A stretch of 15,394 nt of DNA from a virus (lineage: Duplodnaviria; Heunggongvirae; Uroviricota; Caudoviricetes), in IMG/VR virus record IMGVR_UViG_2526164633_000052; one strand, written 5' to 3'. Below, piece after piece: positions 1 through 15,394 of the stretch. The notes below the pieces were generated by a model that had not been told where the DNA came from, did not search any database, and saw only the letters and a program-made list of their open reading frames with translations. Position 1 is the stretch's first letter, and the number at the start of each line of letters is the position of its first letter. A program made the position numbers and the translations under genes.

Positions 1-504
1 TTATTGATAGTGTTTTATGTTCAGATAATGCCCGATGACTTTGTCATGCAGCTCCACCGATTTTGAGAACGACAGCGACTTCCGTCCCAGCCGTGCCAGG
101 TGCTGCCTCAGATTCAGGTTATGCCGCTCAATTCGCTGCGTATATCGCTTGCTGATTACGTGCAGCTTTCCCTTCAGGCGGGATTCATACAGCGGCCAGC
201 CATCCGTCATCCATATCACCACGTCAAAGGGTGACAGCAGGCTCATAAGACGCCCCAGCGTCGCCATAGTGCGTTCACCGAATACGTGCGCAACAACCGT
301 CTTCCGGAGCCTGTCATACGCGTAAAACAGCCAGCGCTGGCGCGATTTAGCCCCGACATAGCCCCACTGTTCGTCCATTTCCGCGCAGACGATGACGTCA
401 CTGCCCGGCTGTATGCGCGAGGTTACCGACTGCGGCCTGAGTTTTTTAAGTGACGTAAAATCGTGTTGAGGCCAACGCCCATAATGCGGGCAGTTGCCCG
501 GCAT
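1..504 (-). CDS. insB: IS1 transposase InsB (B frame of the InsAB' frameshift transposase)
   Basis: 167-aa translation [16 protein letters not shown]...HYLNIKHYQ matches IS1 InsB as I remember it; overlaps insA in a different frame as in IS1. Confidence 0.85.
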
Positions 505-698
505 CCAACGCCATTCATGGCCATATCAATGATTTTCTGGTGCGTACCGGGTTGAGAAGCGGTGTAAGTGAACTGCAGTTGCCATGTTTTACGGCAGTGA
601 GAGCAGAGATAGCGCTGATGTCCGGCGATGCTTTTGCCGTTACGCACCACCCCGTCAGTAGCTGAACAGGAGGGACAGCTGATAGAAACAGAAGCCAC
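423..698 (-). CDS. insA: IS1 InsA (transposition inhibitor / N-terminal part of InsAB')
   Basis: 91-aa translation [23 protein letters not shown]...LKNSGRSR with zinc-finger CxxC...CxxC; canonical IS1 InsA size. Confidence 0.9.
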
Positions 699-753
699 TG
701 GAGCACCTCAAAAACACCATCATACACTAAATCAGTAAGTTGGCAGCATCACC

Positions 754-1367
754 TCGCGATTAATAGTATATGTAATCCTGGGGATAATAAAGATGCGACT
801 CCCATTGAACAATGTACTTTTGATGTAGAAACTAAGAATGGCCTTCCCTCCACGGTTCAGCTATTTTATGAGGAATCTAAGGATAATGAACCTTTAGCGA
901 ATATACATTTTCAAGCAATAGGTTCTGGTTTTTTAACGTTTGTTAATGCCTGCCAGGAACATGATGACAACAGCTTAAAATTATTTGCTTCGCTGTTAAT
1001 TTCACTTTCATATTCTAGTGCCTACGCAGATTTATCAGAAACAGTGTATATTAATGAAAATAATGAGAGCTACCTGAAAGCTCAGTTTGAAAAATTATCT
1101 CAACGTGATATGAAGAAGTACCTGGGAGAGATGAAGCGTCTGGCTGATGGGGGAGAAATGAATTTTGATGGCTATCTGGATAAGATGTCACATCTGGTGA
1201 ATGAAGGAACGCTCGATCCTGATATTTTAAGCAAAATGAGAGATGCTGCACCACAATTAATTAGCTTCGCGAAGTCGTTTGACCCAACCTCAAAGGAAGA
1301 GATTAAAATACTTACAGACACTTCTAAATTAATTTATGATTTGTTCGGGGTTAAATCGGAGAAATAA
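754..1367 (+). pseudogene. 3' remnant (about 204 codons) of an AT-rich ORF of unknown function, interrupted by the IS1 insertion
   Basis: Hand translation shows the frame of ORF 1044-1367 stays open without stops back to the IS1 junction at 754; strongly AT-rich by eye; no family recognised. Confidence 0.55.
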
Positions 1368-1404
1368 TATGTGAAGTTCTTCGATAGTATGGAAGGCATT
1401 ATAT

Positions 1405-1439
1405 AAAAGGACCCAATATTTATTGGGTTCTTTTTTCTC
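1405..1439 (+). terminator. Rho-independent terminator-like hairpin after the IS1-disrupted ORF
   Basis: Stem acccaat/attgggt (1411-1428) followed by tcttttttctc; A-run upstream makes it potentially bidirectional. Confidence 0.5.
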
Positions 1440-1954
1440 TATCAATGCTATTAGCAGGGAGATATATCACCAGAGTTTAATGTGTGATTTTTTATTTATC
1501 GTCGAACCTGGATTGTTTATCATTGGCCTTAACAAAGTTAACGGCTAATAAGATTATTTCCATCACTTCGTGAGAGCTTCATGCCTTGAGAGGATCTCAA
1601 TTTTCTTTTGCAATGAGACAGGCGCTTCCTGTTGTTATGGTATAGTACCCCGCTATTGAGCCTCCTGAATAGTGATGCTGAATAACATAACCCCATGATA
1701 TATCGATAAAATAATCTCTACATTTGAAAATGCACGGTAATTCTGAAATGCAAAAAATCAACCAAACCAGCGCAATGCCTGAAAAAACTGACGTTCACTG
1801 GAGTGGTCGGTTTAGCGTTGCACCAATGCTCGATAGGATGTACCGTTTTTGAAAAACAACTAGTTATACACTTTGTGGGAGCCTATTGGGAACCTGAAGT
1901 TTTGCTCTTTCTATTCATATCTATTCATAAAGCACCATTTGCTGCCTTATCTGA

Positions 1955-1983
1955 TTGACCAAAAACAACCGCGGTTATAGACT
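1955..1983 (+). promoter_or_regulatory. Candidate sigma70 promoter for the 2037-3027 cassette, followed by a short inverted repeat (ctaag...cttag, about 1997-2015) that could be an autoregulatory operator
   Basis: TTGACC, 17-bp spacer, TAGACT; GAGG ribosome-binding site 5 nt before ATG 2037. Confidence 0.3.
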
Positions 1984-2036
1984 TTGCTCCAAATAGCTAA
2001 GGCTATTGCTTAGTAAGTAAAACAGTTGAGGTTGCC

Positions 2037-2576
2037 ATGAATCCGTTTAACGCCATTACTTTTGCTGCATTGTGCGGGCCTCTGGCTTGTCCTGCTGCTA
2101 TGGCGCAGGAGTTCATCATCCAGCCAGCCCCTGTGATTGCTAAACCTTTTGAGTACTCTCCTTCTGTTGAGGAATTCTCACGCAAAATGGAAGAGGGTAA
2201 GGAGATCTTGCAAAAGTTAACAATTGCAGCAGATGACTACTATATCTGTTTGATTGATCTTAATAGCCAAGATGCTCGCGAGTTTGTTTCCAAAAACGGG
2301 ACAGATACGACAGAGGCATGCGAAATGTTCCTGCGTGCTTTTGAAGAAGAAGTGAAGCGTACAATTGAATCGCCTCTGCCTGAATTTATCAGGTCAGAAC
2401 TGAAGGTTTACTGGCGTCATATTGCTAAAGCTCGCTCATCTGTCACTCGCCTTAACAATTACATAAAGAGCATATTTAAAGAAACTGTTACTTTTAGCGG
2501 GCGCGCGGATCTTGCTGGAATTGCAGCACTAGCTAGTCACACATCAAATAAGCTAAAATCGATGCAATTTCACTAA
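2037..2576 (+). CDS. Hypothetical 179-aa protein, upstream partner of the YafO-like toxin (candidate non-canonical antitoxin); N-terminus hydrophobic and signal-peptide-like
   Basis: Good RBS (GAGG) before ATG 2037; 16-bp gap to downstream toxin ORF; no recognisable HTH/RHH or Phd/YefM features; alternative internal start at Met51 (2187). Confidence 0.5.
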   Translation: MNPFNAITFAALCGPLACPAAMAQEFIIQPAPVIAKPFEYSPSVEEFSRKMEEGKEILQKLTIAADDYYICLIDLNSQDAREFVSKNGTDTTEACEMFLRAFEEEVKRTIESPLPEFIRSELKVYWRHIAKARSSVTRLNNYIKSIFKETVTFSGRADLAGIAALASHTSNKLKSMQFH

Positions 2577-2592
2577 CCGATAGCGGACGACC

Positions 2593-3027
2593 ATGCATCT
2601 AGAAGTCTCTATTAATCCAGAAACTAGAGCTGAATTTTTTGATGAAGTTTTTCTCAAATTCCCGGAGCTAGAGTCTTCTATCATTGATGATTTCAAGAGA
2701 TACAAAGCAACCGGTGAGCTTCCGCATTATTTCGGTAGGGACGTTGCGTATACTCAGCCTTATGGTGCTTTTCGGGCTGGGTTGATGCATATCCATCTTT
2801 GTCTACCGCCAAACAAGTTTCCCGAGAAACTTCCACAACCGGATAGGGTCTGCAAGAAAGGTGATCCTGATAATGATGCTTGTCTTGTGTATGTCCAAGG
2901 TGAGCTTTATGAGAATAAATATTCACTCATTGCTATTATGTATCCCGATGCACATGAAAAAGCAAGAAAACATGATGTGATGAGCTATCTGGCGCGAATT
3001 GCCCAGAATTATAAAGATGAAAACTAA
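2593..3027 (+). CDS. YafO-family type II toxin (ribosome-dependent mRNA interferase family)
   Basis: By-eye alignment to E. coli YafO as recalled: YKxxGxLPxxFGRDxxY, HIHL, LVYxQG, LIAIxxPxxHxxAR motifs in the same order and spacing; 144 aa. Confidence 0.7.
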   Translation: MHLEVSINPETRAEFFDEVFLKFPELESSIIDDFKRYKATGELPHYFGRDVAYTQPYGAFRAGLMHIHLCLPPNKFPEKLPQPDRVCKKGDPDNDACLVYVQGELYENKYSLIAIMYPDAHEKARKHDVMSYLARIAQNYKDEN

Positions 3028-3048
3028 CCCGCCGAAGCGGGTTTTTTG
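3027..3048. terminator. Intrinsic terminator between the convergent toxin gene and the PrtN-like gene
   Basis: Stem acccgc/gcgggt with cgaa loop followed by tttttt on the plus strand; A/T-rich on the other side as well. Confidence 0.55.
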
Positions 3049-3053
3049 TGAGA

Positions 3054-3326
3054 TTAGTTATTTATTTTCCTATTTGTTCTTACCCTCTCCCATTCAATTC
3101 TGCCTTCTTCACGCCGTTTATCTATATATTCAGCAAGATCCTGAATGTTGATGCAGCGCTTTGCTTTCTGTGATGTACCAACACGATAAGTCGGGATCGG
3201 CAACTGGCATGCATTTGCTTTCGCTTCTGCTGTGTTAGGGCTCATACCGAAATACTTTTGGCATACAGCTGACAGCTCAATGTTTGGGGTATTGAATTCA
3301 GCCATCAGTAAAAACAAGGTGTTCAT
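3054..3326 (-). CDS. PrtN-family / excisionase-like small DNA-binding protein
   Basis: Translation from Met at 3326 (MNTLFLLMAEFNTPNIELSAVCQKYFG...) resembles the pyocin-activator PrtN family; GGAG RBS 6 nt upstream of that ATG; the ORF is open further upstream to GTG 3353. Confidence 0.65.
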   Translation of the reverse strand: MNTLFLLMAEFNTPNIELSAVCQKYFGMSPNTAEAKANACQLPIPTYRVGTSQKAKRCINIQDLAEYIDKRREEGRIEWERVRTNRKINN

Positions 3327-3362
3327 AATTTTCTCCATCAAAACCGGCTGCACCCGGGAAAA

Positions 3363-3935
3363 TCATAATTCTGTGCTGGTGGCAGGAATTAATTTCTGCC
3401 AGATAGCGGAAACATATTTTGCCTGATGACGGGCATCAGCCAGGGCGTTGTGCCGGTCGCCATCGAAAGGCATGTCCATTTTGGGGTCGAATCCGATGGA
3501 ACGCCCAAGCGTAACGATCGTGCGTACATCGTGGTCATTCCAGTACGCCCACGGGCAGATTTGTCCTGCTCGCTCGTAAGCTCCACGTAAAATTACGTTG
3601 TCGAAGGTGGCCCCGTTACCCCAGACTTTTAAATATTTCGTATTGTCTGCGTGCCGGTTAATGAAATGATTTAGTTCTGAGAGAGCATCGCTGATCGACA
3701 AAGTATCATCAATACAGATTGCAGCTCGTGCTTCAGGGCTTTGTTTCAACCACCACAGGATGGTATCGCCGTCAGGTGTAGCTCCTTGCCCCATAGCACT
3801 TTCCAGGCTAACAACCGTATAGAATTCTTGTCCGATGTCTCCGGTTTCTGGAGTGAAGAACACCGCGCCAATGGAAACGATCGGTGCATCCTTATTTTTC
3901 CCCATCGTCTCAAGGTCGATCATTAAGTTGTTCAT
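3363..3935 (-). CDS. DEDDh-type 3'-5' exonuclease (DnaQ-like fold)
   Basis: Motifs MIDLET (Exo I), WGNGATFDNV (Exo II), HNALADA (Exo III with His); AGGAGG RBS 7 nt before ATG 3935; the start overlaps the stop of the upstream gene. Confidence 0.8.
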   Translation of the reverse strand: MNNLMIDLETMGKNKDAPIVSIGAVFFTPETGDIGQEFYTVVSLESAMGQGATPDGDTILWWLKQSPEARAAICIDDTLSISDALSELNHFINRHADNTKYLKVWGNGATFDNVILRGAYERAGQICPWAYWNDHDVRTIVTLGRSIGFDPKMDMPFDGDRHNALADARHQAKYVSAIWQKLIPATSTEL

Positions 3936-4486
3936 CACTTCACCTCCTGCGGCGGTTCCGGTAGCGGCATCCAGTGAGTTGCTTGCTCAATACCATTACC
4001 CGGCTTAATCGTTGCATCTCCGCGCCGAAAGGTGCTTCCGGTATAGCGTGCGGAGCATATTAGCGGTTCAACCAGAGAGCTATCGAAATTCACCGAAATA
4101 AGCACGTTCTGGCCCTTTTCAGGCATTCGATCACTACAGATTATCCAACTATCCGGAGTTCCCGGAGAGTTGCCATTTACATCGAAGTTTGGCTCTGCGT
4201 CCTGAACCAGGAGGATGTAACCATTCTTGGCTGTATCAAGTTCTAACGCCTCGGTGACGGTGCCGAAATAGCGATTACCTAAATCAGCATCACAAGTGCT
4301 TACATCAATGGAAACTTCCATGCCTTCGATTAATTCTGGCAAGTTGTAAGTTTGGCTTATAGGCTCTGCTTCCAGCGATGCCAGTGCAATTTCATAAGCA
4401 CGGCGCTCAATATTGTCTCGAACGTCCAGGCCGCCTATGCGCTCTTTGATTTCTTTAATCAGTTCTTTGTCGGTAAAAGTGGTCAT
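3935..4486 (-). CDS. DUF551-domain phage protein
   Basis: C-terminal WIICSDRMPEKGQNVL...HWMPLPEPP is the typical DUF551 signature; translationally coupled (ATGA overlaps) to both neighbours. Confidence 0.7.
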   Translation of the reverse strand: MTTFTDKELIKEIKERIGGLDVRDNIERRAYEIALASLEAEPISQTYNLPELIEGMEVSIDVSTCDADLGNRYFGTVTEALELDTAKNGYILLVQDAEPNFDVNGNSPGTPDSWIICSDRMPEKGQNVLISVNFDSSLVEPLICSARYTGSTFRRGDATIKPGNGIEQATHWMPLPEPPQEVK

Positions 4487-4848
4487 GCTGTAGCCCCTTC
4501 TTGATATTTTTCAAACCAGAACACAACCGGGTCAGATTTCATTTCAACCAATCCCATACGAACCAGCGCCTTGCCTTTCCCGGACGCAAGGAATTCACGA
4601 CGACCATCACTGATAATTCGCCGATAATCTTCCAGGCTACTGCAATGCTTGTGCAGATTGCATGGGTGGCATGCCGGAACCATGTTGGATATATCGTCAC
4701 GTTCCTGGTGAAGCATATTTCCAGCAAAACGAATGACCGGTTTTACATGGTCTGCATGCCACTTTTCGCCAAGTTCGCAGCCGCAATAAGCGCAGCGACC
4801 ACCGAACTTCATGCGCAGTTCTGCACGTTGTTTTTTCGTCAGTGCCAT
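4483..4848 (-). CDS. HNH endonuclease
   Basis: CAYCGCEL...WHADHVKP...VPACHPCNLHK: two Cys pairs plus the H-N-H core; start taken at ATG 4848 (MALTKK...) rather than the ORF-track upstream Met. Confidence 0.75.
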   Translation of the reverse strand: MALTKKQRAELRMKFGGRCAYCGCELGEKWHADHVKPVIRFAGNMLHQERDDISNMVPACHPCNLHKHCSSLEDYRRIISDGRREFLASGKGKALVRMGLVEMKSDPVVFWFEKYQEGATA

Positions 4849-4849
4849 A

Positions 4850-5068
4850 TCAGCTTTCCTTATATGGATTAATTTTATTGTGCAGTGTGTTGAACGACGC
4901 CCATACCACGTCGTTATACAATTCAATAACTGGCTCAATTATTTTCCCGATTGCCCATACCAGAATTAACGGGGATATCGGTATCATCAACACGATAAAC
5001 AGAATGAGAAACAAAAATTCTGTCGCTCTACTTCTTCGCGGATATTCTTTTCTGAATAATGTCGGCAT
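4850..5068 (-). CDS. Small single-pass membrane protein (72 aa)
   Basis: GGAGAG RBS 4-5 nt before ATG 5068; one clear transmembrane segment FLFLILFIVLMIPISPLILVWAIG. Confidence 0.45.
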   Translation of the reverse strand: MPTLFRKEYPRRSRATEFLFLILFIVLMIPISPLILVWAIGKIIEPVIELYNDVVWASFNTLHNKINPYKES

Positions 5069-5069
5069 A

Positions 5070-5261
5070 TCACTCTCCTTTAGTGCGCAAGTGGTTTTCC
5101 CAGCGGTTTTGCGCCGCGCTGGGCTTATCTTTGACTCCCTCTCTGGCAATTCCAGAATATAAGTACAACACCACACGGCGATTGCTAACTCTCAACCACT
5201 GGCAGGGATAGCAACGTCTGTATACACGGGAAATAAGCATCTTTGCTTTACGGTTTTTCAT
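5070..5261 (-). CDS. Small basic protein (63 aa), paralog of the next ORF
   Basis: Starts MKNRKAK; its ATG overlaps the stop of the upstream paralog; shares N-terminus and a diverged KP(S/T)A(A/S)QNR segment with ORF 5258-5434. Confidence 0.4.
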   Translation of the reverse strand: MKNRKAKMLISRVYRRCYPCQWLRVSNRRVVLYLYSGIAREGVKDKPSAAQNRWENHLRTKGE

Positions 5262-5434
5262 CTTACTGCGTACCCTTTCTTTCGCCTGTTCTGTGACGCT
5301 GTAGGCTTACGCTTTGCGGCAAAAGCCACCTGACCAAATGGATGGAGTACTGCTATCTTATGGTTGCTGATAACCAGCTCCACCACACGCACAGGTCGCT
5401 GTAAAAAAAGTCGTTTTGCTTTACGGTTTTTCAT
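5258..5434 (-). CDS. Small basic protein (58 aa, below the ORF-track cutoff), paralog of 5070-5261
   Basis: Hand translation MKNRKAKRLFLQRPVRVVELVISNHKIAVLHPFGQVAFAAKRKPTASQNRRKKGYAVR; AGGAG RBS 9 nt upstream; the first 20 nt are identical to the start of the downstream paralog. Confidence 0.35.
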   Translation of the reverse strand: MKNRKAKRLFLQRPVRVVELVISNHKIAVLHPFGQVAFAAKRKPTASQNRRKKGYAVR

Positions 5435-5606
5435 CGTTTTGCTCTCCTGCGTTTCTTTGCTGCACGTCGTGCAGCTGCAATACCGGTATGGCGGTGCTTT
5501 GGTGCCGGGATGATGTTGTCAGCCATCAGGACATGTGGCTTTGCAATTAGCGCAGAAGCCCAAAAACGAGTCGGGTACGGTAACAAGTCGATACATGCCA
5601 CACGCA

Positions 5607-6236
5607 TTACTCACCTTCTTTGATGCGAATGCCAGCGGCGCGTGGCACATTAACTTCCACGATGCGCACAGTTGGTTTGTACATCTCAATCGCTGTCAGC
5701 CAGTCAGCGCCGGTCATATGCTTTTCTGCATCGCCATTAGTCCATTGAACCGGCACACCAATAGCTTTCATCGCAATTTCTATTTCCCCGGCAATGGCGC
5801 TTTTCCCGCAACCAGTAAAACCAGAGACAACGACAAGAACTTCGCCTTTGGCTGGTTTTATTTCCCGTGCTTCCAGTTCTGCTATGCGCTTCTCTGCGGC
5901 TTCCAGCTTGGCTTCTGCATCTTTGGCTCGCATCTGCCAGTTGATAGCGATGTCGATAACGCTGTTAGCACAACTGGACTCGTTCTCTTCGGCAGCTTTA
6001 GCTTCAGAAAGCTCATCAAGCAATCCAAGAACAACAGTTGGCGTGGCGAGCGTGATAAAACGCATATTGCTCATATGCTCTTCATCGCTGACCTCATCTC
6101 CAGCCTCGACCGCTGCCATGTGCTGAACATAGCCGCTATCACAGGTATTCCAGATTGCCCCTGCCTCGTAACCCCATTCACCATGTAGTGCTTTTTCTGC
6201 CGCCTCACGCAGTGCCTGGTAATTAATTTCGCTCAC
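5607..6236 (-). CDS. Coiled-coil early protein, probably an Ea22-like mosaic-family member (from memory, unverified)
   Basis: GTG start with AGGAGG RBS; N-terminus SEINYQALREAAEKA and central KRIAELE coiled coil; overlaps the stop of the upstream gene. Confidence 0.6.
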   Translation of the reverse strand: MSEINYQALREAAEKALHGEWGYEAGAIWNTCDSGYVQHMAAVEAGDEVSDEEHMSNMRFITLATPTVVLGLLDELSEAKAAEENESSCANSVIDIAINWQMRAKDAEAKLEAAEKRIAELEAREIKPAKGEVLVVVSGFTGCGKSAIAGEIEIAMKAIGVPVQWTNGDAEKHMTGADWLTAIEMYKPTVRIVEVNVPRAAGIRIKEGE

Positions 6237-6913
6237 TGACAGCCTCCTTTGCGAAGCTCTGCAGCGAAATATACAGCTGCGGAAACAATAGCTGCATGTC
6301 GGTATTCACCATCAGAAAAGAGAGAATCTCCCTTAAGTGCATTGACGATACTCTGATGATTTTTTGCCAGCATCTCCACACCCTGCGCCCGTACTTCAGC
6401 CAGGAAAGCATCTGTAGCCGGGGTTTGCGGCATACCTCCGTCTGTTGCGCAGATATACGCATCAGATAGTTCATCCTGCTCGCCATCAAACACGTAGCAA
6501 CTCTGTGCGATAAATTTATTTAGCCCCGCATTCTCCGCCGCCAGCGCCGCGCAATTACCCTCCAGCTCTGCAATGCGCTGTTTTGCAGCATCAAGTTCAA
6601 TCGATAATTTTTCCAACTGCTCTTTATGCTTCTTGTATTCCTGATATGCGTGCCAGGACTGACCTTTGCGCACACTATCAGTAATATCAGTAATCTGTTC
6701 TGGTGTTAGCGTGGTCAGTGGCTGTGCTGGGAAAATCAGCACTTTCCCGGAATCCCAATCAAAACCAGCGTGAATTGACTGAACCTCAACTGAGGGTGTT
6801 GAACCAATGCTGCCAGGCGAATGAACAACGATCGTTACATCCATATCGCGACGATGGCTGTGGTTGTTGGACAAAATACGATTCACCAACTCAGAAAATT
6901 TGGAGAATTTCAT
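6233..6913 (-). CDS. Mosaic coiled-coil phage protein; C-terminal half paralogous to ORF 7329-7907
   Basis: Start taken at ATG 6913 (GAGG RBS 6 nt upstream); contains the 134-bp segment that is repeated in 7594-7727. Confidence 0.6.
   Translation of the reverse strand: MKFSKFSELVNRILSNNHSHRRDMDVTIVVHSPGSIGSTPSVEVQSIHAGFDWDSGKVLIFPAQPLTTLTPEQITDITDSVRKGQSWHAYQEYKKHKEQLEKLSIELDAAKQRIAELEGNCAALAAENAGLNKFIAQSCYVFDGEQDELSDAYICATDGGMPQTPATDAFLAEVRAQGVEMLAKNHQSIVNALKGDSLFSDGEYRHAAIVSAAVYFAAELRKGGCQ
6420..6553. repeat. Copy A of an approximately 134-bp near-identical direct repeat (copy B at 7594-7727)
   Basis: Direct comparison of the two stretches: only a handful of mismatches over about 134 bp; both copies are inside coding sequence and encode ...CAALAAENAGLNKFIAQSCYVFDGEQDELSDAYICA... 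Confidence 0.8.
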
Positions 6914-6921
6914 GCGGAGCC

Positions 6922-7332
6922 TCAATATGCAAAATAGACCGTTGCCACGCCGTTATAGTGATCAAACGATACGGCGTTTACTTCATAGCTGGCAGGGAGC
7001 TTCGAGCCGAGAACATATCCGGGCCACGTTTTCCATGGAATTTCTCTACTCTCACTACCCCCATATACCGTACATCCAAGTGAACCTACAGCCTCGTCAG
7101 AACGTTTGCCGCATGTTATGAAACCTATATTTTTCTTGCTGGTCTTAATGGCGATTGGGTGAACACTGGCTGATGCATTGGCAGCACGCTGTGACTGTTG
7201 GTTTGCGATATTCGCAGAGTTCGCAGCAGCTACAGCAGCCATGGTCGCGGCGGTAGATGCCACAATAACTGCTGAAGCCTGCGCCTGTTGGGTAATGGTC
7301 AGCAATGCCGCCACAAAAATCATCTTCTTCAC
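6922..7332 (-). CDS. Secreted or periplasmic protein with N-terminal signal peptide (136 aa), function unknown
   Basis: GTG start with GGAG RBS 7 nt upstream; MKKMIFVAALLTITQQAQA has the n/h/c regions and an AxA cleavage motif of a Sec signal peptide; Ala/Ser/Asn-rich mature N-terminus. Confidence 0.6.
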   Translation of the reverse strand: MKKMIFVAALLTITQQAQASAVIVASTAATMAAVAAANSANIANQQSQRAANASASVHPIAIKTSKKNIGFITCGKRSDEAVGSLGCTVYGGSESREIPWKTWPGYVLGSKLPASYEVNAVSFDHYNGVATVYFAY

Positions 7333-7907
7333 TTGTCAGCTCCTTTGCGAATCTGTTCCGCCCATTCTTCAAGGGATTTCTCCGCATATTCACCGGACAG
7401 GCCATCAATCGGGTGCGGTTCATTAGCCAACTCTTCTTTCGCTGACAGAATCATGCGCGTAACGTCGAAAACTTCACGTAAAGACTTATTGATAAATCCG
7501 TGGTTGAAAGCAGCAGCAAGACGGCTTGCGGTATAGTTAATCCCCTCGTTGCGAGCCGCCGCACGAATTTCAGCCAAAAAAGCATCGGTGGCTGGGGTTT
7601 GCGGCATCTTTCCGTCTATTGCGCAGATATACGCATCAGATAGCTCATCCTGCTCGCCATCAAACACGTAGCAACTCTGTGCGATAAATTTATTTAGCCC
7701 CGCATTCTCCGCCGCCAGCGCCGCGCACTTGGCCTCAAGGTTATCAATCGTGATTCCAGCAGAACGGCACTCCCGCAACGCCGTTTCTAGTTTTGATTCA
7801 AGTTCACCGAACTTACGCACCAGGTATTCAGCATCCGTTTCATTCACTTTCAGATCTCGCGGTACACATTTCCCGAGAAGAAACCATTCCATTTCGAAAA
7901 CATTCAT
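7329..7907 (-). CDS. Hypothetical coiled-coil phage protein; shares a module with ORF 6233-6913
   Basis: ATG 7907 overlaps the stop of the YfdR-like gene (ATGA); contains repeat copy B. Confidence 0.6.
   Translation of the reverse strand: MNVFEMEWFLLGKCVPRDLKVNETDAEYLVRKFGELESKLETALRECRSAGITIDNLEAKCAALAAENAGLNKFIAQSCYVFDGEQDELSDAYICAIDGKMPQTPATDAFLAEIRAAARNEGINYTASRLAAAFNHGFINKSLREVFDVTRMILSAKEELANEPHPIDGLSGEYAEKSLEEWAEQIRKGADK
7594..7727. repeat. Copy B of the approximately 134-bp direct repeat
   Basis: See copy A; same orientation, 1174 bp apart. Confidence 0.8.
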
Positions 7908-8440
7908 GCGCATTTGCGTAACTCCGATAACTCGTTAAAACGTTCCATAAACATCCCGTAGGCATGGCCTGGTGACAGTGGAATAACTTTGAACATCTCT
8001 GTTGCTGGGATGCCTTCCAGTACAGGCCAGAAAGAGCCATCATCAAGCCCGAGATCGCGGCGTTCGGTTGCCAGCATAATGAGATCGGCATATTTCACTG
8101 GCGTGCTCATAACAGGAGGTAACCCGTATTTCTCACGGATTACGGCGTCTATTTTTTCTTCCATCCGTTTATAGTCAGGAAGAAGGCGTTTCAGTGGCGC
8201 GGGAATGTCCTGGCAATACGCTTCTGTTGCATCATGCATTAACGCTTCAAAAGCAAATTCCTGCGGTACCAGCTGGCTGCAAAGCACCGCATGTTGGGCG
8301 ACGCTGTAGAAGTGTGAAAGATGTCCTGCAAAGCGACAGATATTTGAAAGGGAAACCGCGATATCGTTAATAACGATGTCATCTTTATTTATCTTGTCAT
8401 AATAAAAATGTTTCCCGGAAAAAGTTTTAATAAATGACAT
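7904..8440 (-). CDS. yfdR: HD-domain phosphohydrolase, YfdR-like (5'-deoxynucleotidase family)
   Basis: 178 aa from ATG 8440 (GGAG RBS 7 nt upstream); HD-type motifs (HxxxV...HDAxE...D); size and gene order match the yfdP-yfdQ-yfdR cluster of E. coli CPS-53 as I recall it. Confidence 0.75.
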   Translation of the reverse strand: MSFIKTFSGKHFYYDKINKDDIVINDIAVSLSNICRFAGHLSHFYSVAQHAVLCSQLVPQEFAFEALMHDATEAYCQDIPAPLKRLLPDYKRMEEKIDAVIREKYGLPPVMSTPVKYADLIMLATERRDLGLDDGSFWPVLEGIPATEMFKVIPLSPGHAYGMFMERFNELSELRKCA

Positions 8441-8568
8441 TTCGTTCTCCACTTTATATGCGCTGCACCGCGTTGAATTCTGCTAAAAGGAAGCTCTCAC
8501 CATCCGGTGATTATTGAGTTAATTACGTTTCCATAAATGCCCCCGCAGGGGCATTAGCAGTAATGAAA

Positions 8569-9393
8569 TCAGGCGGTGAAAGTACCAATAAAGGTTTCTA
8601 CTTTGCTGTCTTTGAATTTCTCAACAAGCAGATCACGAAATTCGTTAGCCATTTCTTCCTGCACTGCTTCCAGCTGAATAATGCGCAGAACCAGTACAGG
8701 ACGATCGCCAGTGATAATGCTGAGGCGTAATTTAAACGGACGTTCTTTCAGACCTTCAAACGGAACGCATTTAAATTCAAATGCCACTGGCATAATATCT
8801 TTGGTCTTCGCTTCGACAGACTCCATCAGGGAGCGTTTTCCGCTGAAGTCATTATCTTCAAAATCAGCGGTCTGGTTTGCTTCAATCGTGATTTTACGGA
8901 CAGCCGCAGCCGCTTTTGTTGCCTGAATAGCGTCACCATTAGCATCAAAGCCCACAAGGTAGTCGGCCCAGTCTTCAATCCATTCTGCCAGTGACTTCTG
9001 GGAGTTACGCTCGCCATTAACAGACAACAGAGCAGAAAACGGTGCTGTCTTTTTTAGTTTGAGAGTGGCGGTGTTATCTGCGTGACCTGGTTCATCAATA
9101 GTACCCAGGTTAAGCACACTGACGGCGCGCATATTATCGGCATCGATAAAGCAGCGGGTGCCTTCATCTGCAAGATCTTTAGAATAACGGGTAAAGTCAT
9201 CGATGCTGGCAGTGGAAAGCGCACCACGGAAACGGAAGCGATTTAAATTAAATTTTTCCAGATCATGAATGCGGAAATTCTCAGGCAATGCCACAGCATC
9301 GGCACCAATCTTACTGATAATTTCATTAACACCCTGAGCAGAAATAAGGGCATGGATTTGATTAATTGCGGTTGCGTCTAAGTTCTGAGACAT
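8569..9393 (-). CDS. yfdQ: YfdQ-like DUF2303-family phage protein (274 aa)
   Basis: Length and position (between YfdP-like and YfdR-like genes) match YfdQ; GAGGA RBS upstream of ATG 9393. Confidence 0.7.
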
Positions 9394-9458
9394 AATAAGT
9401 CCTCACTATATAAAGATATTCAGTGATGAGATAAATAATCAGTTAATTAAGAACGATA

Positions 9459-9821
9459 TTAATGACCTGCTGCGCGGAGTTTTCCGTCAGGTTCACCGGC
9501 AAGAGTCAGTAATTGTCCCTGGTCTTCCTGCAGAATAGTCAGGCGACCACCGCGATTGACATACATCGGCGTTTCGGTGGTGTCTTCTTCGGAAATTTTC
9601 CCGCGGTTAGTTGGGCGAACATATGAGAGTTTGTGTTTGATTTTCACACGGTTCTCATCAAACGGTTCGATTTCCAGATTGAGTGAGACCTTCCCTTTGG
9701 TTTTCGTGTTCATCACACCGGAAGCGACTTCACTGAGAACTGCGCCGATTTTGGTTTCAAATACGCCGCCGTCCAGCTCCCCGATAAATGCCTGCACATC
9801 AGTACTGCGTTCGCTAGCCAT
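9459..9821 (-). CDS. YfdP-like small phage protein (120 aa); first gene of the leftward early operon
   Basis: Start set at ATG 9821 (MASERSTDVQ...) with GAGGAG RBS 7 nt upstream; the ORF-track extension to 10007 is Cys/Arg-rich and contains RNA hairpins, so it is unlikely to be coding. Confidence 0.6.
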   Translation of the reverse strand: MASERSTDVQAFIGELDGGVFETKIGAVLSEVASGVMNTKTKGKVSLNLEIEPFDENRVKIKHKLSYVRPTNRGKISEEDTTETPMYVNRGGRLTILQEDQGQLLTLAGEPDGKLRAAGH

Positions 9822-9956
9822 TTTGCTGCTCCTCATCATATCGACCCTGCAAGGTCGGTTGGTTTCTCCACAAAACAGAGAAGAACACCTGCGGTGGCAG
9901 CCGCCCGGATGGATTGGGTTATGAGCCCGTCGTCCGGTGATGCTCTTCTCTGTTTT

Positions 9957-10004
9957 GTAAAAAGAGCGGTACCAGCCGGAAGCAAGTGTACAAACTGGTA
10001 CCGC
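9957..10004 (-). terminator. Intrinsic terminator-like hairpin in the leftward (pL) leader
   Basis: Perfect 10-bp stem gcggtaccag/ctggtaccgc (9966-9975 and 9995-10004) with 19-nt loop, followed on the minus strand by TCTTTTT. Confidence 0.5.
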
Positions 10005-10435
10005 CAAAGCAGTGGCTGTTGTGGTGACCGGTGCTGATCTCCGGCTTGCGGTTATTTCAGACTCTCACGGGCGTTTAATTGCCCCGCCGAACAGCTCTTT
10101 TCCGCATTAGCTGCAATGTCTTTCGCGCATCAGCCTGCGCATTCACCACAACGCTGAGAGCACTTAGCCAGTTACGGCACCACACTTTGTCGCGGTTCCA
10201 TAAATGCCCTCATCGTTGCACCCTGGTCTCTTCCCAGGTGTCAAACCGAACCGCCACGCTGGTTAGGCGTCTTATCAGCATCATCATTGACTTGCACATT
10301 CCGGCTACCTGGTTTGTTTGCCCGAGCAAGGAGTGGATTGTCCCCTTTAACGTCCCCAGACCGCTAACGACGCATGTGCCATACGCCGTGTTACAACCAA
10401 ATTTTGTTTAATCTTGCCTGTGACATGTTTCTTTT

Positions 10436-10470
10436 AGATACATTATGTATCTCAAGGGTACATTGTCAAG
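10436..10470 (-). promoter_or_regulatory. Candidate pL promoter with overlapping operator palindrome
   Basis: On the minus strand: TTGACA (plus 10464-10469), 16-bp spacer, CATAAT (plus 10442-10447); perfect 17-bp palindrome agatacattatgtatct (10436-10452) overlaps the -10. Confidence 0.45.
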
Positions 10471-10496
10471 TATAAAAAAACCTGCCGAAGCAGGTT
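10471..10496 (-). terminator. Rho-independent terminator of the repressor gene
   Basis: Stem aacctgc/gcaggtt with cgaa loop (10479-10496); on the minus strand it is followed by a run of 7-8 T. Confidence 0.6.
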
Positions 10497-10507
10497 ATAA
10501 ATATTGA

Positions 10508-11182
10508 TTAGGCCTTTATTTTGTATCTTCTTGGTTTTCCTGAGAAAATTACTGTACCAATTATAGAGCAATTACCGTTGATCTTAATGTAAGGTTCAGG
10601 CCAGTTTGGGTTTAATGCTTTGAGGTAACGCTGTGTTCCATCTTCTATCAACCGCTTAAAGGTGGTTTCGCCTGTATCGTGCATCAATGCAATAACGTCG
10701 TCACCGTGGCAGGCAGGGACTTCAGGATCTACAAAAATCATGTCTCCCGGGCGGTACTCATCAATCATTGAATCACCAATCACCCGCAAGATATAAGTCA
10801 TTTCGCCACAGGGTACAGGGCAGGGATAAGTTTCTGCTGTGCTCAAATCAACCTCAGAATAGCCAACTTCTTTCCATGCTCCGGCCTGTACCCATGATAT
10901 GACAGGGACTAACGTTATTTGTTTGTTAGTAATTGAAACATCAGGTTTTTTTGTGATGTTTGTTGTCTGGTGTTCTTGATCAAGCCATCCGACAGGCAGG
11001 TCGAAACATTTTTCGATGTGCCGTGCCATGCTGTCACCGATATTTTTAGTAGCACCATCTCCCATAAACCTGCTGGTCTGGGTTGGCTCGCGATCAATCA
11101 TGGTGGCAAAGGAAGAATTCCCGCCAACACCATCTCTCAGTTTTCTGGCGTTAGACCGCCGGATGTCATGGACTGTTTTCAT
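10508..11182 (-). CDS. CI-like prophage repressor with C-terminal S24 (LexA-like) autopeptidase domain
   Basis: C-terminal VIGDSM...FKRL motifs (Ser/Lys dyad) typical of LexA/CI autocleavage domains; divergent from a Cro-like gene across an operator-containing intergenic region. Confidence 0.85.
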   Translation of the reverse strand: MKTVHDIRRSNARKLRDGVGGNSSFATMIDREPTQTSRFMGDGATKNIGDSMARHIEKCFDLPVGWLDQEHQTTNITKKPDVSITNKQITLVPVISWVQAGAWKEVGYSEVDLSTAETYPCPVPCGEMTYILRVIGDSMIDEYRPGDMIFVDPEVPACHGDDVIALMHDTGETTFKRLIEDGTQRYLKALNPNWPEPYIKINGNCSIIGTVIFSGKPRRYKIKA

Positions 11183-11198
11183 AACGAAATTAAAACCT

Positions 11199-11250
11199 TT
11201 GTACCGATAGGGTACAAGTATCTTGAAGGTTCATCTCAATCATGTAATAT
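11199..11250 (+). promoter_or_regulatory. OR/pR region: operator palindrome plus candidate rightward promoter
   Basis: Palindrome ttgtaccgatagggtacaa (11199-11217); TTGAAG (11223-11228), 16-bp spacer, TAATAT (11245-11250); GGAGG RBS at 11258-11262 before ATG 11273. Confidence 0.45.
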
Positions 11251-11272
11251 GTATATCGGAGGTACATATTGT

Positions 11273-11473
11273 ATGAAAGCGTATTGGGACTCTTTAACCA
11301 AAGAACAGCAGGGCGAGTTGGCCGGAAAAGTTGGCTCAACACCAGGCTACTTACGGCTGGTTTTCAATGGTTATAAAAAAGCCAGTTTTGTGCTGGCTAA
11401 AAAACTTGAGCAATGCACGTCAGGTGCAATTACGAAATATGACTTAAGACCGGATATCTATCCGAAAGATTAA
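11273..11473 (+). CDS. Cro-like (Cro/YdaS-type) small HTH regulator, 66 aa
   Basis: Position immediately right of the repressor and OR; HTH-like segment ELAGKVGSTPGYLRLVFNG; the ORF-track N-terminal extension overlaps the repressor gene and is rejected. Confidence 0.7.
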   Translation: MKAYWDSLTKEQQGELAGKVGSTPGYLRLVFNGYKKASFVLAKKLEQCTSGAITKYDLRPDIYPKD

Positions 11474-11504
11474 CAGAACACCTTCAATTTTTAACCACAG
11501 AACG

Positions 11505-12068
11505 ATGAGGCTAACCGTGGGTAAGCATCACTGGAAAGTAGAAAAACAGCCTGAGTGGTACGTGAAAGCTGTCAGAAAAACTATCGCGGCGTTGCCGGGG
11601 GGTTACGCTGAAGCTGCTGAGTGGCTGGATGTAACAGAGAACGCTTTATTCAACCGCCTTCGTGCAGATGGCGATCAGATTTTCCCGCTGGGATGGGCAA
11701 TGATTTTACAGCGCGCGGCTGGCACTCACTACATTGCGGATGCTGTCGCACAGTCTGCTGGTGGGGTGTTTGTATCGCTTCCTGAAATTGAGGAAGTAGA
11801 GAACGCCGATATAAACCAGCGCCTGCTGGAAGTCATCGAACAGATCGGGAGTTACTCAAAGCAGATTCGTTCGGCAATCGAAGATGGGGTAGTGGAGCCA
11901 CACGAGCAGACAGCAATTAATGATGAGTTGTATCTGTCAATTTCGAAGCTCCAGGAGCATGCAGCACTGGTCTACAAAATCTTTTGCGCTCCAGAAAAGA
12001 GTGACGCCCGCGAGTGTGCAGCTCCGGGCGTCGTGGCGTTTTGTGTCTGTGGAGAAACTAACGCATGA
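11505..12068 (+). CDS. CII-like / YdaT-like regulatory protein (assignment tentative)
   Basis: Second gene of the rightward operon, where CII or YdaT sits in lambdoid phages; HTH-like segment GYAEAAEWLDVTENALFNRLR; alternative GTG start at 11517 has a better RBS. Confidence 0.5.
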   Translation: MRLTVGKHHWKVEKQPEWYVKAVRKTIAALPGGYAEAAEWLDVTENALFNRLRADGDQIFPLGWAMILQRAAGTHYIADAVAQSAGGVFVSLPEIEEVENADINQRLLEVIEQIGSYSKQIRSAIEDGVVEPHEQTAINDELYLSISKLQEHAALVYKIFCAPEKSDARECAAPGVVAFCVCGETNA

Positions 12069-12901
12069 ACAGTTTAACGGCAAATAACCGTTTGTCGCAA
12101 CAGCTGGTGGTCAGCGTCGCTGAACACCTGTTGTTACGGCATGAATGCAGATTACCAAATCACCTGGCTGTAAGTAACCACAGAGAACTTTACCTGACTG
12201 TGGGGGGCGAGTTGTGCAGGAACTTAACCGCTGGTTTCGTGACGGAAGAGGACTTTATGTTCATGTTATTCGTTGGGAGCCAGAAACACAGCGCGTTATC
12301 TATCTTCGCAAAGACTACCCGCATGAGTGCTTTAGTCCTTTGTGGAAATTCAGGCGTGATTTTGTTGAGTGTGAAGGACCACCAGCACATTGATTCTGCC
12401 ATTCCGGGACGTTACACTGTTCAGGCACCTTATAAAGCGGGTGCCGGGATTGGCGTCCTGGAATTGATCAAGGCGATATATGACGCGCCAGCGTCTTTTT
12501 TATCGTCCGCATTTGCTCACATCAAAGTTATGGTGGGCTGGGCGGGGGCATCGAAAGATGCGCCGGTTTCCTTGATCACCGGTTACGCCAACCCCGTTCA
12601 GTTCACCACCAGCGAAATTGGCGTTTCCGGTGGTGGAAGTATTTCACCGATCAAGGAGGCTGCCATCATGGCTACTGTCCCAGCCCTCACTCGTCTGAAT
12701 GATGAAGACTTACATAAACTCAGTTATGTAACAACTGCACTACGTGCTCTGCGCAAGGTAACTCTTTCGGATCCCCAGGCGCATCAGGTTTTGGTAGAAA
12801 CCCTTCTTAACTTGCAGGCTGAACGTATTCGTCTGGCGGATAAGGCTAATTTTCATATTCACCGTCTCCTGAATATCAGCGGAGGGCATCGTCATGCTTA
12901 A
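12065..12901 (+). CDS. Hypothetical protein (278-aa ORF); gene structure uncertain
   Basis: Long open frame translationally coupled to both neighbours (ATGA at 12065; downstream ATG 12894 overlaps its end); no family recognised; 12178-12402 is open in three frames. Confidence 0.4.
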   Translation: MNSLTANNRLSQQLVVSVAEHLLLRHECRLPNHLAVSNHRELYLTVGGELCRNLTAGFVTEEDFMFMLFVGSQKHSALSIFAKTTRMSALVLCGNSGVILLSVKDHQHIDSAIPGRYTVQAPYKAGAGIGVLELIKAIYDAPASFLSSAFAHIKVMVGWAGASKDAPVSLITGYANPVQFTTSEIGVSGGGSISPIKEAAIMATVPALTRLNDEDLHKLSYVTTALRALRKVTLSDPQAHQVLVETLLNLQAERIRLADKANFHIHRLLNISGGHRHA

Positions 12902-13130
12902 TCCGTTGAGCCTCAATATTCGCCGTTTACTTCAGCGTAAAAAAACATCAATTCCTACAGTTGGGCAGTGGTACACCACGCCTGCAGGGCATGTTCTACG
13001 TGTTAGCCTGGTTGACCGTGAATGCCAGAAGGTGATTTGTGAACCGCTGGGCCGTAATTACCGCGTCAGTATGCCGCTTATAGCCTTTCGCTCCGGAAAA
13101 AACATGAAGCATCTCGGAGGTGCAGCATGA
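12894..13130 (+). CDS. Hypothetical small protein (78 aa)
   Basis: Strong GGAGG RBS 8 nt before ATG 12894; stop overlaps the start of the O-like gene (ATGA). Confidence 0.45.
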   Translation: MLNPLSLNIRRLLQRKKTSIPTVGQWYTTPAGHVLRVSLVDRECQKVICEPLGRNYRVSMPLIAFRSGKNMKHLGGAA

Positions 13131-15089: not shown

Positions 15090-15394
15090 AGCTGATCCTG
15101 CCTTTCCCGCCCAGCGTGAACACGTACTGGCGACACCCCAACAAAGGGGCATTTGCTGGTAAGAGCCTGATAAGCGCGGCGGGGCGCAAATTCCAGAGCG
15201 CGGCGTGTGCAGCAATAGTTGAGCAGTTACGTCGTCTGCCAAAACCAACGTCGGCACCTGCTTCAGTGGAGATCGTGTTGTTTCCTCCGGATAACCGGAT
15301 CCGCGATCTGGACAACTATAACAAGGCGCTGTTTGACGCCCTGACCCACGCGGGTGTGTGGGAAGACGACAGTCAGGTGAAAAGATGCTGGTTG
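15086..15394 (+). CDS. rusA: RusA-family Holliday-junction resolvase, 5' part (runs off the window)
   Basis: LPFPPSVNTYWRH...RDLDNYNKALFDALTHAGVWEDDSQV matches RusA conserved blocks; ATG 15086 overlaps the upstream stop. Confidence 0.8.
   Translation, partial: MKLILPFPPSVNTYWRHPNKGAFAGKSLISAAGRKFQSAACAAIVEQLRRLPKPTSAPASVEIVLFPPDNRIRDLDNYNKALFDALTHAGVWEDDSQVKRCWL

Follow-up and report, generated by a model that had tools for sequence, protein, structure and literature searches.

Why should a lambdoid prophage carry an excisionase-like gene (3054-3326) with low-GC DNA (754-3053), and no integrase, as its left neighbour? The window, by which we mean the whole 15,394-nt stretch of viral DNA analysed here, poses this question, and a sequence-only reading had offered two answers: either a moron or replacement region lies at the end of the prophage, or the prophage is cryptic and has lost its int. 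The window does lack an integrase, as that reading said. It also lacks a tRNA: a tRNA scan of the window found none, which excludes a tRNA att site. We are confident that the region is the attL of a lambdoid prophage inserted in the 5' end of dusA, together with a swappable toxin-antitoxin-like cassette, and that nothing has been lost. The arrangement is mostly ordinary and is already explained by a known family of dusA phages.

The junction between host and phage was located by alignment. The stretch 754-1833 is ordinary E. coli chromosome, identical to K-12 up to an 8-bp core, and its right end is an orphaned 5' end of dusA (1730-1834, plus strand; 35 codons, MHGNSEMQKINQTSAMPEKTDVHWSGRFSVAPMLD) that is identical to K-12 until the crossover. 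This assignment rests on the alignment with K-12 dusA, on the translation of the K-12 N-terminus and on the PGAP pseudogene call in an identical genome, where a partial dusA is annotated; the window parts from K-12 dusA at 1834. The att sites come from a five-way alignment of the window, K-12 attB, attR of strain FDAARGOS_1059 (NZ_CP066032.1, 100% identical to window 754-15394) and both ends of phage PhiR40_1. attL is a 21-bp imperfect repeat at 1817-1837 (GTTGCACCAATGCTCGATAGG), which matches attR of NZ_CP066032.1 (ATTGCTCCTATGCTCGACTGG) at 17 of the 21 positions. The exact core common to attL and attR, ATGCTCGA, is 8 bp long (1826-1833), and phage DNA begins at 1834. A conserved P' arm of attP follows (1834-1896), which a multi-class alignment shows to be common to dusA prophages with differing cargo; its first 61-70 nt are also found in about 300 E. 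coli genomes besides the 48 with the complete cassette. The arm closes with GGGAACC (1888-1894), which is a candidate for an arm-type integrase site and occurs only four times in the 42-kb PhiR40_1 genome, each time at attP. The interval 1368-2036, previously described as one long AT-rich non-coding stretch, is a composite of distinct host and phage parts, namely a yjbM terminator, a host spacer, the 35 dusA codons, attL, the attP arm and a promoter-like leader (1955-1983). DusA-associated integrases replace the 5' end of dusA, and their islands are flanked by 21-bp semi-conserved repeats (PMC4482086). Judged from the alignments, the phage studied here follows this known habit, having inserted into host dusA at its 5' end.

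The excisionase-like gene (3054-3326, minus strand) encodes a PrtN-domain protein of 90 aa (Pfam PF11112, E 4e-24) that is probably a recombination directionality factor, RdfN. In the gene orders of mEp460 and PhiR40_1, a small PF11112 protein is likewise encoded across attP from int. The same holds for the dusA-specific Vibrio island IMEVchUSA3, where experiments have shown that excision depends on the RdfN homologue (Rivard et al., 2021, PMC8409611); the Vibrio gene differs in having an AcaCD-dependent promoter and a 76-aa product, whereas the gene here belongs to a lambdoid early-left operon. The rdfN-exo module is present in 741 of 5426 complete E. coli genomes (~14%). Outside the closest relatives, matches to the rdfN module mostly begin at query position 21-23, and conservation among relatives returns at ~3074-3075; the last ~7 codons of rdfN thus lie in the variable segment.

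Comparison with related dusA prophages, which had been proposed as a check, gave the boundaries of the insertion: the true cargo extends from ~1897 to ~3074. For this interval the earlier suggestion of a moron, or of a replacement region, at the end of the prophage was borne out, as it holds one of five interchangeable cassette classes found in E. coli between the attP arm and rdfN. Counted by cassette sequence in E. coli genomes, the classes comprise 48, 357, 206, 79 and 46 members, summing to 736 against the 741 genomes with the rdfN-exo module. The YafO version carried by the window accounts for 48 of the 5426 complete genomes, and three of the five classes are Panacea antitoxin/toxin pairs. 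The same int-attP-slot-rdfN-exo module is present in PhiR40_1 and PhiR55_1 (both ECOR-derived), mEp460, Lys8385Vzw and phiSTEC1575-Stx2k. PhiR40_1 and PhiR55_1 have the identical cassette (100% over 1816-3400), and PhiR40.1 and PhiR55.1 have been used as plaque-forming temperate phages. The slots of the others differ: Panacea (SocA-like) antitoxin/toxin pairs are found in Lys8385Vzw and the Stx2k phage, and genes for 178-aa and 57-aa proteins in mEp460. The mEp460 178-aa protein was considered as a member of the family of the 179-aa protein encoded here and was rejected, the two falling into separate sequence clusters. The structural modules differ as well: PhiR40_1 has lambda-like tail genes (V, H, J), and the genome identical to the window has genes for a tail sheath, a tail tube and a baseplate. 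In P2 and P4 phage hotspots, conserved genes flank a fixed site that holds mutually exclusive small cassettes, many of them TA-like; the slot described here differs in that it is found in dusA lambdoid phages, with attP on one side and the excision-factor gene on the other. It gathers interchangeable YafO and Panacea TA modules at one defined position in phages, some of them Stx2-converting, and offers a compact test bed for two possible effects of such cassettes, lysogen stabilisation and the exclusion of competing phages.

In the window, the slot of ~1.2 kb holds two plus-strand genes and appears to have its own promoter-like region and terminator. A consensus scan found a promoter-like site, TTGACC-17-TAGACT, at 1955-1983 (plus strand, 9 of 12 matches), the -35 element of which (TTGACC) is common to four cassette classes in the alignment. 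At the other end, a scan of both strands found a GC-rich hairpin with T-runs on both sides (3026-3043), a predicted bidirectional terminator, and alignment of the right boundary shows that each alternative cassette has its own version of the terminator between cassette and rdfN. The YafO gene (+) and the PrtN gene (-) face each other and share this hairpin, in agreement with the convergent toxin cassette recognised earlier. The first gene (2037-2576) has a conserved GAGGT ribosome-binding site and encodes a 179-aa protein that belongs to no known family and that, from the conserved gene pairing, we presume to be the antitoxin or partner of YafO. The second gene (2593-3027) encodes a YafO-family toxin of 144 aa (Pfam PF13957, E 2e-21). 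Its YafO_toxin domain scores 76.5 bits against a Pfam cut-off of 25, and the protein is 36% identical to K-12 YafO over 117 residues (BLASTP); it falls below the cut-off of the NCBIfam equivalog PRK09885 for K-12 YafO (75.8 bits vs 153). K-12 YafO is annotated as a ribosome-dependent mRNA interferase.

The cassette resembles K-12 yafN-yafO in the YafO_toxin domain and in gene order, with the partner gene first and the toxin gene second. It differs in being phage-borne rather than part of the dinB operon, and in a partner that is longer than YafN (179 vs 97 aa), has a hydrophobic N-terminus and lacks a Phd/YefM domain. This partner is not a cognate YafN: BLASTP found no similarity between the two (E 1.7). 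No match to the 179-aa protein was found in Pfam, NCBIfam or PADLOC, and no DNA-binding or known antitoxin domain was recognised in it. Its AF2 model (pLDDT 79) had no Foldseek match in the PDB at E <= 0.001, where only generic helical bundles (CorA, MukF) were hit, and a profile search of 1.84 billion representative proteins returned only 23 relatives, with no link to a known family. The homologues form 22 clusters, all full length, and the family is small and restricted to Enterobacterales. PADLOC found no defence-system match for the cassette, and nothing specific on YafO-based defence carried by phages turned up in a literature search.

The pairing of the two genes is conserved. The genes for the 179-aa protein and YafO adjoin in all eight contigs examined, which represent six homologues (five from organisms other than E. 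coli); the gap is 16 nt here and 2-16 nt in the eight relative contigs. Three of these pairs occupy dusA-prophage slots (Phytobacter/ENNIH3-type), two lie in phage tail regions (Serratia and an ENA contig), two are on Pantoea vagans contigs and one is at a non-phage chromosomal site in Ca. Pantoea multigeneris. This strict adjacency implies that the two genes are co-expressed and functionally coupled. We infer that the module is a toxin-antitoxin pair expressed in the lysogen, in which the YafO-family protein would be toxic and the 179-aa protein would neutralise it; its role would be prophage retention and/or abortive defence against other phages. According to consensus scans, the cassette may also be transcribed from the stranded host dusA promoter.

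The most probable alternative, which we still consider unlikely, is that the cassette is not a classical TA pair: the 179-aa protein would be exported or membrane-anchored by way of its conserved hydrophobic N-terminal segment and act as a sensor, as an envelope exclusion factor or in a role other than YafO neutralisation. The protein consists of a conserved hydrophobic N-terminus (residues 1-26), a disordered linker and a helical bundle. The near-invariant N-terminus, MNPFNAITFAALCGPLA(C/Q)PAAMAQ, contains an AxA-like motif and resembles a signal peptide (AMA followed by Q), which is odd in a cytoplasmic antitoxin. It is under selection at the protein level, with 10 synonymous and 2 non-synonymous codon changes in L092, and the AF2 model predicts a separate N-terminal helix followed by the disordered linker. 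The protein is, moreover, unlike YafN or any antitoxin family. Against this alternative, the gene is strictly adjacent to yafO at the gaps given above and stands upstream of the toxin gene, the usual position of an antitoxin; sequence conservation is normally low in signal peptides, and no positively charged n-region is present in this one. A toxin-antitoxin pair is our preferred reading of the cassette. Two linked proposals can be put forward only tentatively. In one, the 179-aa/YafO pair would be an undescribed TA or defence family, and the conserved, signal-peptide-like N-terminus of the partner would couple an envelope or membrane cue to the release of a ribosome-dependent RNase. In the other, the attP-rdfN gap would be a dedicated TA/defence hotspot with five alleles, its cassettes being switched on specifically in the lysogen because integration sets them directly downstream of the stranded host dusA promoter. 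What is modestly interesting here is the slot with its five alleles and the uncharacterised partner of YafO.

The integrase itself was found in the relatives, at the opposite end of the prophage. In FDAARGOS_1059, the far end lies ~40 kb away and carries an intact 365-aa tyrosine integrase beside a re-formed dusA; the gene was assigned as int by its Pfam domain (PF00589, E 1e-20) and by its position next to dusA. There, dusA is full length (1038 nt), int is 88 bp off in divergent orientation, and a DinI-like gene comes next. The rebuilt N-terminus of DusA is identical to the native one at 25 of 35 positions. The 42.2-kb PhiR40_1 genome begins at window position 1816 and has int at its other end. 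In the linear genome of mEp460, the genes form one contiguous series: DinI and int point leftward, followed by the dusA-like 5' end with attP, by the cargo pointing rightward, and by PrtN and exo, again leftward. The lambda-type arrangement, in which int adjoins xis on the same side of attP, does not apply here, as attP and the cargo slot lie in between. The expectation of an integrase beside the xis-like gene does not suit this family, since dusA elements carry int and a PrtN-type directionality factor across attP from each other (mEp460 order; PMC8409611).

We explain the layout as follows. The tyrosine integrase of a dusA phage recombines a 21-bp semi-conserved site inside dusA, and the phage supplies a substitute dusA start and promoter beside int, leaving the native 35 codons stranded at 1730-1834. 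In the circular phage, attP lies between int and the PrtN-type excision factor. Integration then places int at the far end by the rebuilt dusA, and the excision factor ~1.2 kb inside the near end; int and rdfN are found at opposite prophage ends because attP separates them in the circular phage. The window stops at 15394, and the identical relatives suggest that the source strain has an intact int as well.

The dusA-specific elements described by Farrugia et al. [quoted passage not shown] We found each of the defining features here, that is, the 5' insertion with its remnant, repeats of ~21 bp and a dusA open reading frame restored by a tyrosine integrase, the last of these in the identical relative. 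No essential difference was seen; that paper gave prtN no role and described no variable slot between attL and prtN. A prtN homologue is carried by 64% of the islands with DusA-associated integrases (PMC4482086). Table S1 of the same paper has eight E. coli entries, and its rows for the phage lysogens E. coli 101-1 and 3003 place prtN two genes from the end opposite int.

Loss of int would mean a degraded cryptic prophage, in which an int originally next to the xis-like gene had been deleted or had given way to low-GC cargo. We regard this as very improbable. Decay would fit a window without an integrase, the nearby IS1 (IS elements promote deletions) and the stfP tail-fibre gene annotated as partial in the identical relative. 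However, attL is clean and lies at the canonical dusA site, with host DNA identical to K-12 up to the 8-bp core; the relatives, free phage genomes included, carry int across attP and not beside xis; and IS1 lies in host yjbM, 1 kb outside the prophage. The identical FDAARGOS_1059 prophage, with its intact int next to the re-formed dusA, also has intact lysis, terminase, head and tail genes, the partial stfP being its sole defect. A prophage inserted at dusA with its integrase at the far end accounts for the layout, and a xis-like gene without an adjoining integrase by low-GC DNA should not be taken as prophage decay. Separation of int and xis is the normal layout of dusA-specific phages, whose module is as widespread in E. 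coli as reported above.

The low GC content noted from the sequence was confirmed, at 0.398 for 754-3053 against 0.487 for 3054-15394. The phage part alone (1834-3053) has a GC content of 0.421, lower than that of any 1220-bp segment elsewhere in the prophage (lowest value 0.428). A single horizontally acquired low-GC island spanning 754-3053 beside the prophage is nonetheless hardly credible: GC is uniformly low across the region (0.36-0.44) and yjbLM is itself accessory, being absent from strain AH21I008, but 754-1833 is collinear with K-12 and accounts for almost all of the matches among complete E. coli genomes, most of them prophage-free, the cassette occurs without yjbLM and in genomes of induced phages beginning at the att site, and a recombination core divides the host and phage parts. 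We accordingly rejected one island as the unit, as the alignment of attB, attL and attR splits the region at 1826-1833, with K-12-like yjbM-dusA DNA to the left and prophage from 1834. The disrupted gene and most of the AT-rich stretch, both counted as cargo before, are host DNA, and prophage boundary callers that include yjbM or the dusA remnant would mis-assign host DNA as phage cargo. A query of 754-3400 finds a match in 4383 of 5426 complete E. coli genomes, almost all through the host part; most of these genomes lack the prophage, and 754-1833 is collinear with K-12 zur-yjbLM-dusA. In AH21I008, the dusA remnant and the same prophage come straight after zur.

Three pieces make up the host stretch: what IS1 has left of yjbM at its 3' end, the spacer between yjbM and dusA, and the initial 35 codons of dusA. 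As had been claimed, IS1 (1-753, minus strand) disrupts a gene. Of this gene, yjbM (yjbLM, DUF2713), the 3' 612 nt remain (754-1367, plus strand); the 203 codons at 756-1367 correspond to DUF2713 positions 33-235 of 235 (Pfam, E 1e-140). The annotation of the identical sequence in NZ_CP066032.1 and that of K-12 support the assignment, and the start of the gene lies another 372 nt upstream in the closest genome. A hairpin with a T-run at 1405-1434 (plus strand), found in a terminator scan, is likely the yjbM terminator of the host. The window starts within IS1, which encodes InsB (1-504; Pfam DDE_Tnp_IS1, E 2e-78) and InsA (423-698; domains with E 5e-31 and 7e-21), and whose sequence is present in tens of thousands of copies across E. 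coli genomes. We take ...GTTGGCAGCATCACC, ending at 753, to be the terminal sequence of IS1, with the left inverted repeat closing there and presumably the last 15 nt of the element missing from the window. To the left of IS1 we would expect the rest of yjbLM and then zur; the pattern of an integrase and att site immediately beyond IS1 and of one cargo common to all relatives was not found. The IS1 insertion in yjbM is unrelated to the neighbouring prophage junction. The exact IS1-yjbM junction is absent from the 5426 complete E. coli genomes, five of which carry IS1 elsewhere within yjbM.

We searched the region 754-3400 against 5426 complete E. coli genomes by megablast. It is matched in 4383 of them, only 34 over at least 80% of the query, and the annotations beneath the full-length matches are DUF2713, a partial tRNA-dihydrouridine synthase, a hypothetical protein, a YafO toxin and a PrtN protein. 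In K-12, the gene order is zur-yjbL-yjbM-dusA-pspG. We aligned the window with the K-12 dusA 5' region, both ends of phage PhiR40_1 and the far prophage end of the closest genome (FDAARGOS_1059, NZ_CP066032.1). Identity of the window to K-12 extends through ...GTTGCACCAATGCTCGA, which ends at 1833; from 1834 on, the two sequences are unrelated. The far end is reciprocal, with phage-type sequence as far as ATGCTCGA and K-12 sequence thereafter. This pattern at both ends indicates that 754-1833 is host DNA, consisting of the 3' part of yjbM, the yjbM terminator (1405-1434), a spacer and the orphaned dusA codons 1-35 (1730-1834). The crossover core ATGCTCGA is exact at 1826-1833, and attL is a 21-bp repeat at 1817-1837, of which 17 positions equal attR.

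The sequence-only reading had taken 754-3053 as a single low-GC cargo island, which the change from K-12 identity to phage sequence at 1833/1834 rules out. The GC content is indeed low (0.398, compared to 0.487 for the rest of the window), and that of the phage cargo part (0.421) is below every equal-sized window in 3054-15394 (minimum 0.428). The picture was correctly observed and mis-assembled: the region is an IS1-struck host segment, a canonical dusA attL and a small variable toxin cassette. Window 1024-15392, with the 3' end of host yjbM and the remnant of dusA, is also present in a 55.6-kb record that bears the label of a plasmid from strain SX12 (NZ_CP142787.1, 29238-41695). This record may reflect mis-assembly, or else a segment, host DNA included, that was excised or transduced. 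The circular record of phage Lys8385Vzw has a tandem-duplicated 8-bp core (ATGCTCGAATGCTCGA, ~3100-3115 of locus L006), an artefact that was probably created when attR and attL were joined in silico.

The IS1 copy occupies 1-753 on the minus strand, with its inverted repeat ending at 753, and encodes InsB (1-504, minus strand; Pfam E 2e-78) and InsA (423-698, minus strand; E 5e-31). The window presumably starts 15 nt inside IS1, which suggests that the contig terminated within a repeat. The adjoining open frame (754-1367) has 203 codons corresponding to DUF2713 positions 33-235 of 235 (E 1e-140). The gene disrupted by IS1 is therefore real, but it is yjbM and not cargo, since the aligned boundary places it in the chromosome, ~1 kb outside the prophage. 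In K-12, the GC contents of yjbL and yjbM are 0.29 and 0.37, and both genes are missing from strain AH21I008 (NZ_CP196251.1; 4268-5204 of locus L097), where the dusA remnant and the same prophage come straight after zur; the low-GC yjbLM pair is thus itself accessory in E. coli. IS1 is found at other yjbM positions in at least five other complete genomes (H179-H183), suggesting that the AT-rich yjbM is a recurrent IS1 target.

Neither an integrase nor a tRNA is present in the 15,394-nt window. The absence of the integrase had been noted before, and one of the two suggestions made was a degraded cryptic prophage that lost it, an explanation that the closest relatives do not support. Over window 754-15394, FDAARGOS_1059 and one O111:H2 strain show 100% identity, and neither has the IS1. 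The FDAARGOS_1059 prophage is ~40 kb long and terminates in a DinI-like gene and a 365-aa tyrosine recombinase (PF00589, E 1e-20), and a divergent full-length dusA lies 88 bp beyond the recombinase gene; residues 1-35 of this DusA are phage-supplied, 25 of the 35 being identical to native DusA. PhiR40_1 and PhiR55_1, both in use as plaque-forming temperate phages, match window 1816-3400 and 1832-3400, respectively, at 100% identity, and the PhiR40_1 record starts at window 1816 with int at its opposite end. The integrase gene had also been expected to abut the excisionase-like gene. In the linear, unintegrated mEp460 genome, the order is DinI and int (both leftward), the dusA-like 5' end with attP, two rightward cargo genes, and the leftward PrtN "excisionase" and exonuclease genes, and Lys8385Vzw has the same order (int, attP, cargo, PrtN, exonuclease). 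Thus attP lies between int and the excision-factor gene, integration parts them to opposite prophage ends, and a 15-kb window from one end is expected to lack int. Because the source strain is outside the complete-genome set and the exact IS1-yjbM junction has no match among those 5426 genomes, we infer its far end from the identical relatives, by which the integrase would not be missing but would belong at the other prophage end.

The module of int, attP, cassette, rdfN (the PrtN-domain gene for the probable excision factor) and exonuclease is joined to different structural modules in FDAARGOS_1059 (tail-sheath, tail-tube, baseplate and HK97-type prohead protease) and PhiR40_1 (lambda-like tail proteins V, H and J), which is a mosaic exchange of the recombination arm. 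The first 61-70 nt past the core (1834 to ~1896-1903) are common to ~300 further genomes with different downstream sequences. The motif GGGAACC has only four copies in the 42-kb PhiR40_1 genome (73, 42078, 42094 and 42106), all clustered at attP within ~230 bp. Three of them lie in the int-dusA' spacer, and the fourth, equivalent to window 1888-1894, marks precisely where the conserved attP arm stops. These copies are candidate arm-type integrase-binding sites.

The prophage matches the DusA-associated integrase family in its insertion at the dusA 5' end, its 21-bp repeats and its prtN gene (PMC4482086). Members of this family enter the dusA 5' end, substitute their own sequence and are bounded by 21-bp semi-conserved repeats, and 64% of the islands have a prtN homologue (PMC4482086). 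Table S1 of that study has 8 E. coli entries, and its rows for the phage lysogens 101-1 and 3003 place prtN two genes in from the non-int end. For a dusA-specific element, Rivard et al. (PMC8409611) showed the recombination directionality factor to be encoded by the PrtN-domain gene rdfN. The architecture is therefore already known and its novelty is low; the YafO partner, which is uncharacterised, and the slot with its five alleles are modestly novel.

The cassette consists of a 179-aa ORF (2037-2576, plus strand) and a 144-aa ORF with a YafO_toxin domain (2593-3027, plus strand; E 2e-21). As previously noted, the toxin gene is convergent with the excisionase-like gene rdfN (3054-3326, minus strand; PrtN domain, E 4e-24), and a GC-rich hairpin with T-runs on either side lies at 3026-3043. 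The toxin is 36% identical to K-12 YafO and scores under the NCBIfam equivalog threshold. No family was assigned to the 179-aa protein by Pfam, NCBIfam or PADLOC, and BLASTP found no relationship to YafN. Among 5.8 billion proteins, its homologues make up only 22 clusters; profile searching of 1.84 billion proteins recovered only 23 representatives, and all homologues with a named source organism are from Enterobacterales. In each of the eight contigs examined, which represent six homologues, a YafO_toxin gene lies immediately 3' of the 179-aa gene, separated from it by 2-16 nt. Three of these pairs occupy dusA-prophage slots of the Phytobacter/ENNIH3 type, two are in phage tail regions (one in Serratia, one on an ENA contig) and two are on contigs of Pantoea vagans; in Ca. 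Pantoea multigeneris, the pair is at a chromosomal site outside any phage. This constant adjacency indicates that the pair moves as a unit.

In the AlphaFold model of the 179-aa protein (pLDDT 79), a hydrophobic helix at the N-terminus (residues 6-24) is joined by a disordered linker to a helical bundle, and the model has no significant match in the PDB. Residues 1-26 (2037-2114) are nearly invariant and far more conserved than the remainder; they are under purifying selection at the protein level, with codon changes in L092 being 10 synonymous versus 2 non-synonymous. The gene is preceded, at a distance of 5 nt, by a conserved GAGGT ribosome-binding site. The N-terminus (MNPFNAITFAALCGPLACPAAMAQEF) is signal-peptide-like (AMA|Q), which is needless for a classical antitoxin and unexpected in that role. 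Judged from synteny and the toxin family, a toxin-antitoxin pair is the likeliest function, a reading we favor with moderate confidence; such a pair would act in prophage retention, abortive defence or both. A consensus scan found no plus-strand terminator between 1435 and 3025, so that in a lysogen transcription from the stranded dusA promoter of the host could continue across attL into the cassette.

The rdfN-exonuclease module is present in 741 complete E. coli genomes, and outside the closest relatives most of its matches start at query position 21-23 (window ~3074-3076). By alignment, the left limit of variability is directly past GGGAACCTG (1896), while the -35-like TTGACC (1955-1960) is still common to four classes. 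The earlier suggestion of a moron or replacement region thus holds for ~1897-3074 but not for the host DNA at 754-1833. Clustering of the 80 closest rdfN loci from IMG/VR and reference phages divides this interval into five classes, with gene families assigned by Pfam and NCBIfam: 179-aa protein and YafO toxin (class 1, the window), 178-aa and 57-aa proteins (class 2, mEp460 type), Panacea/SocA antitoxin with 139-aa and 57-aa proteins (class 3, Lys8385Vzw), Panacea antitoxin with a 182-aa membrane-type protein (class 4, Stx2k phage), and Panacea antitoxin with a 156-aa protein (class 5). Every class has its own hairpin terminator abutting the rdfN 3' end. Classes 1-5 are found in 48, 357, 206, 79 and 46 complete E. 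coli genomes, respectively, counting matches at any genome location (sum 736, compared to 741 with the rdfN module), and the YafO version is a minority allele of the slot.

The commonest allele carries the 178-aa mEp460 gp23 (3255-3788 of locus L005; 357 genomes, including O157:H7 strains), which has no match in Pfam and whose C-terminal part looks acetyltransferase-like by eye. The 57-aa basic ORF (MKDQKATKPQVKFDT...), which has no family match and is absent from the window's class, is conserved between cargo and rdfN in two classes (L005, 3985-4158; L006, 4398-4571). Elsewhere in the window, three small ORFs of 63, 58 and 58 aa overlap one another on the minus strand (5070-5607). Two of them start with MKNRKAK, so tandem paralogy within the early-left operon is possible.
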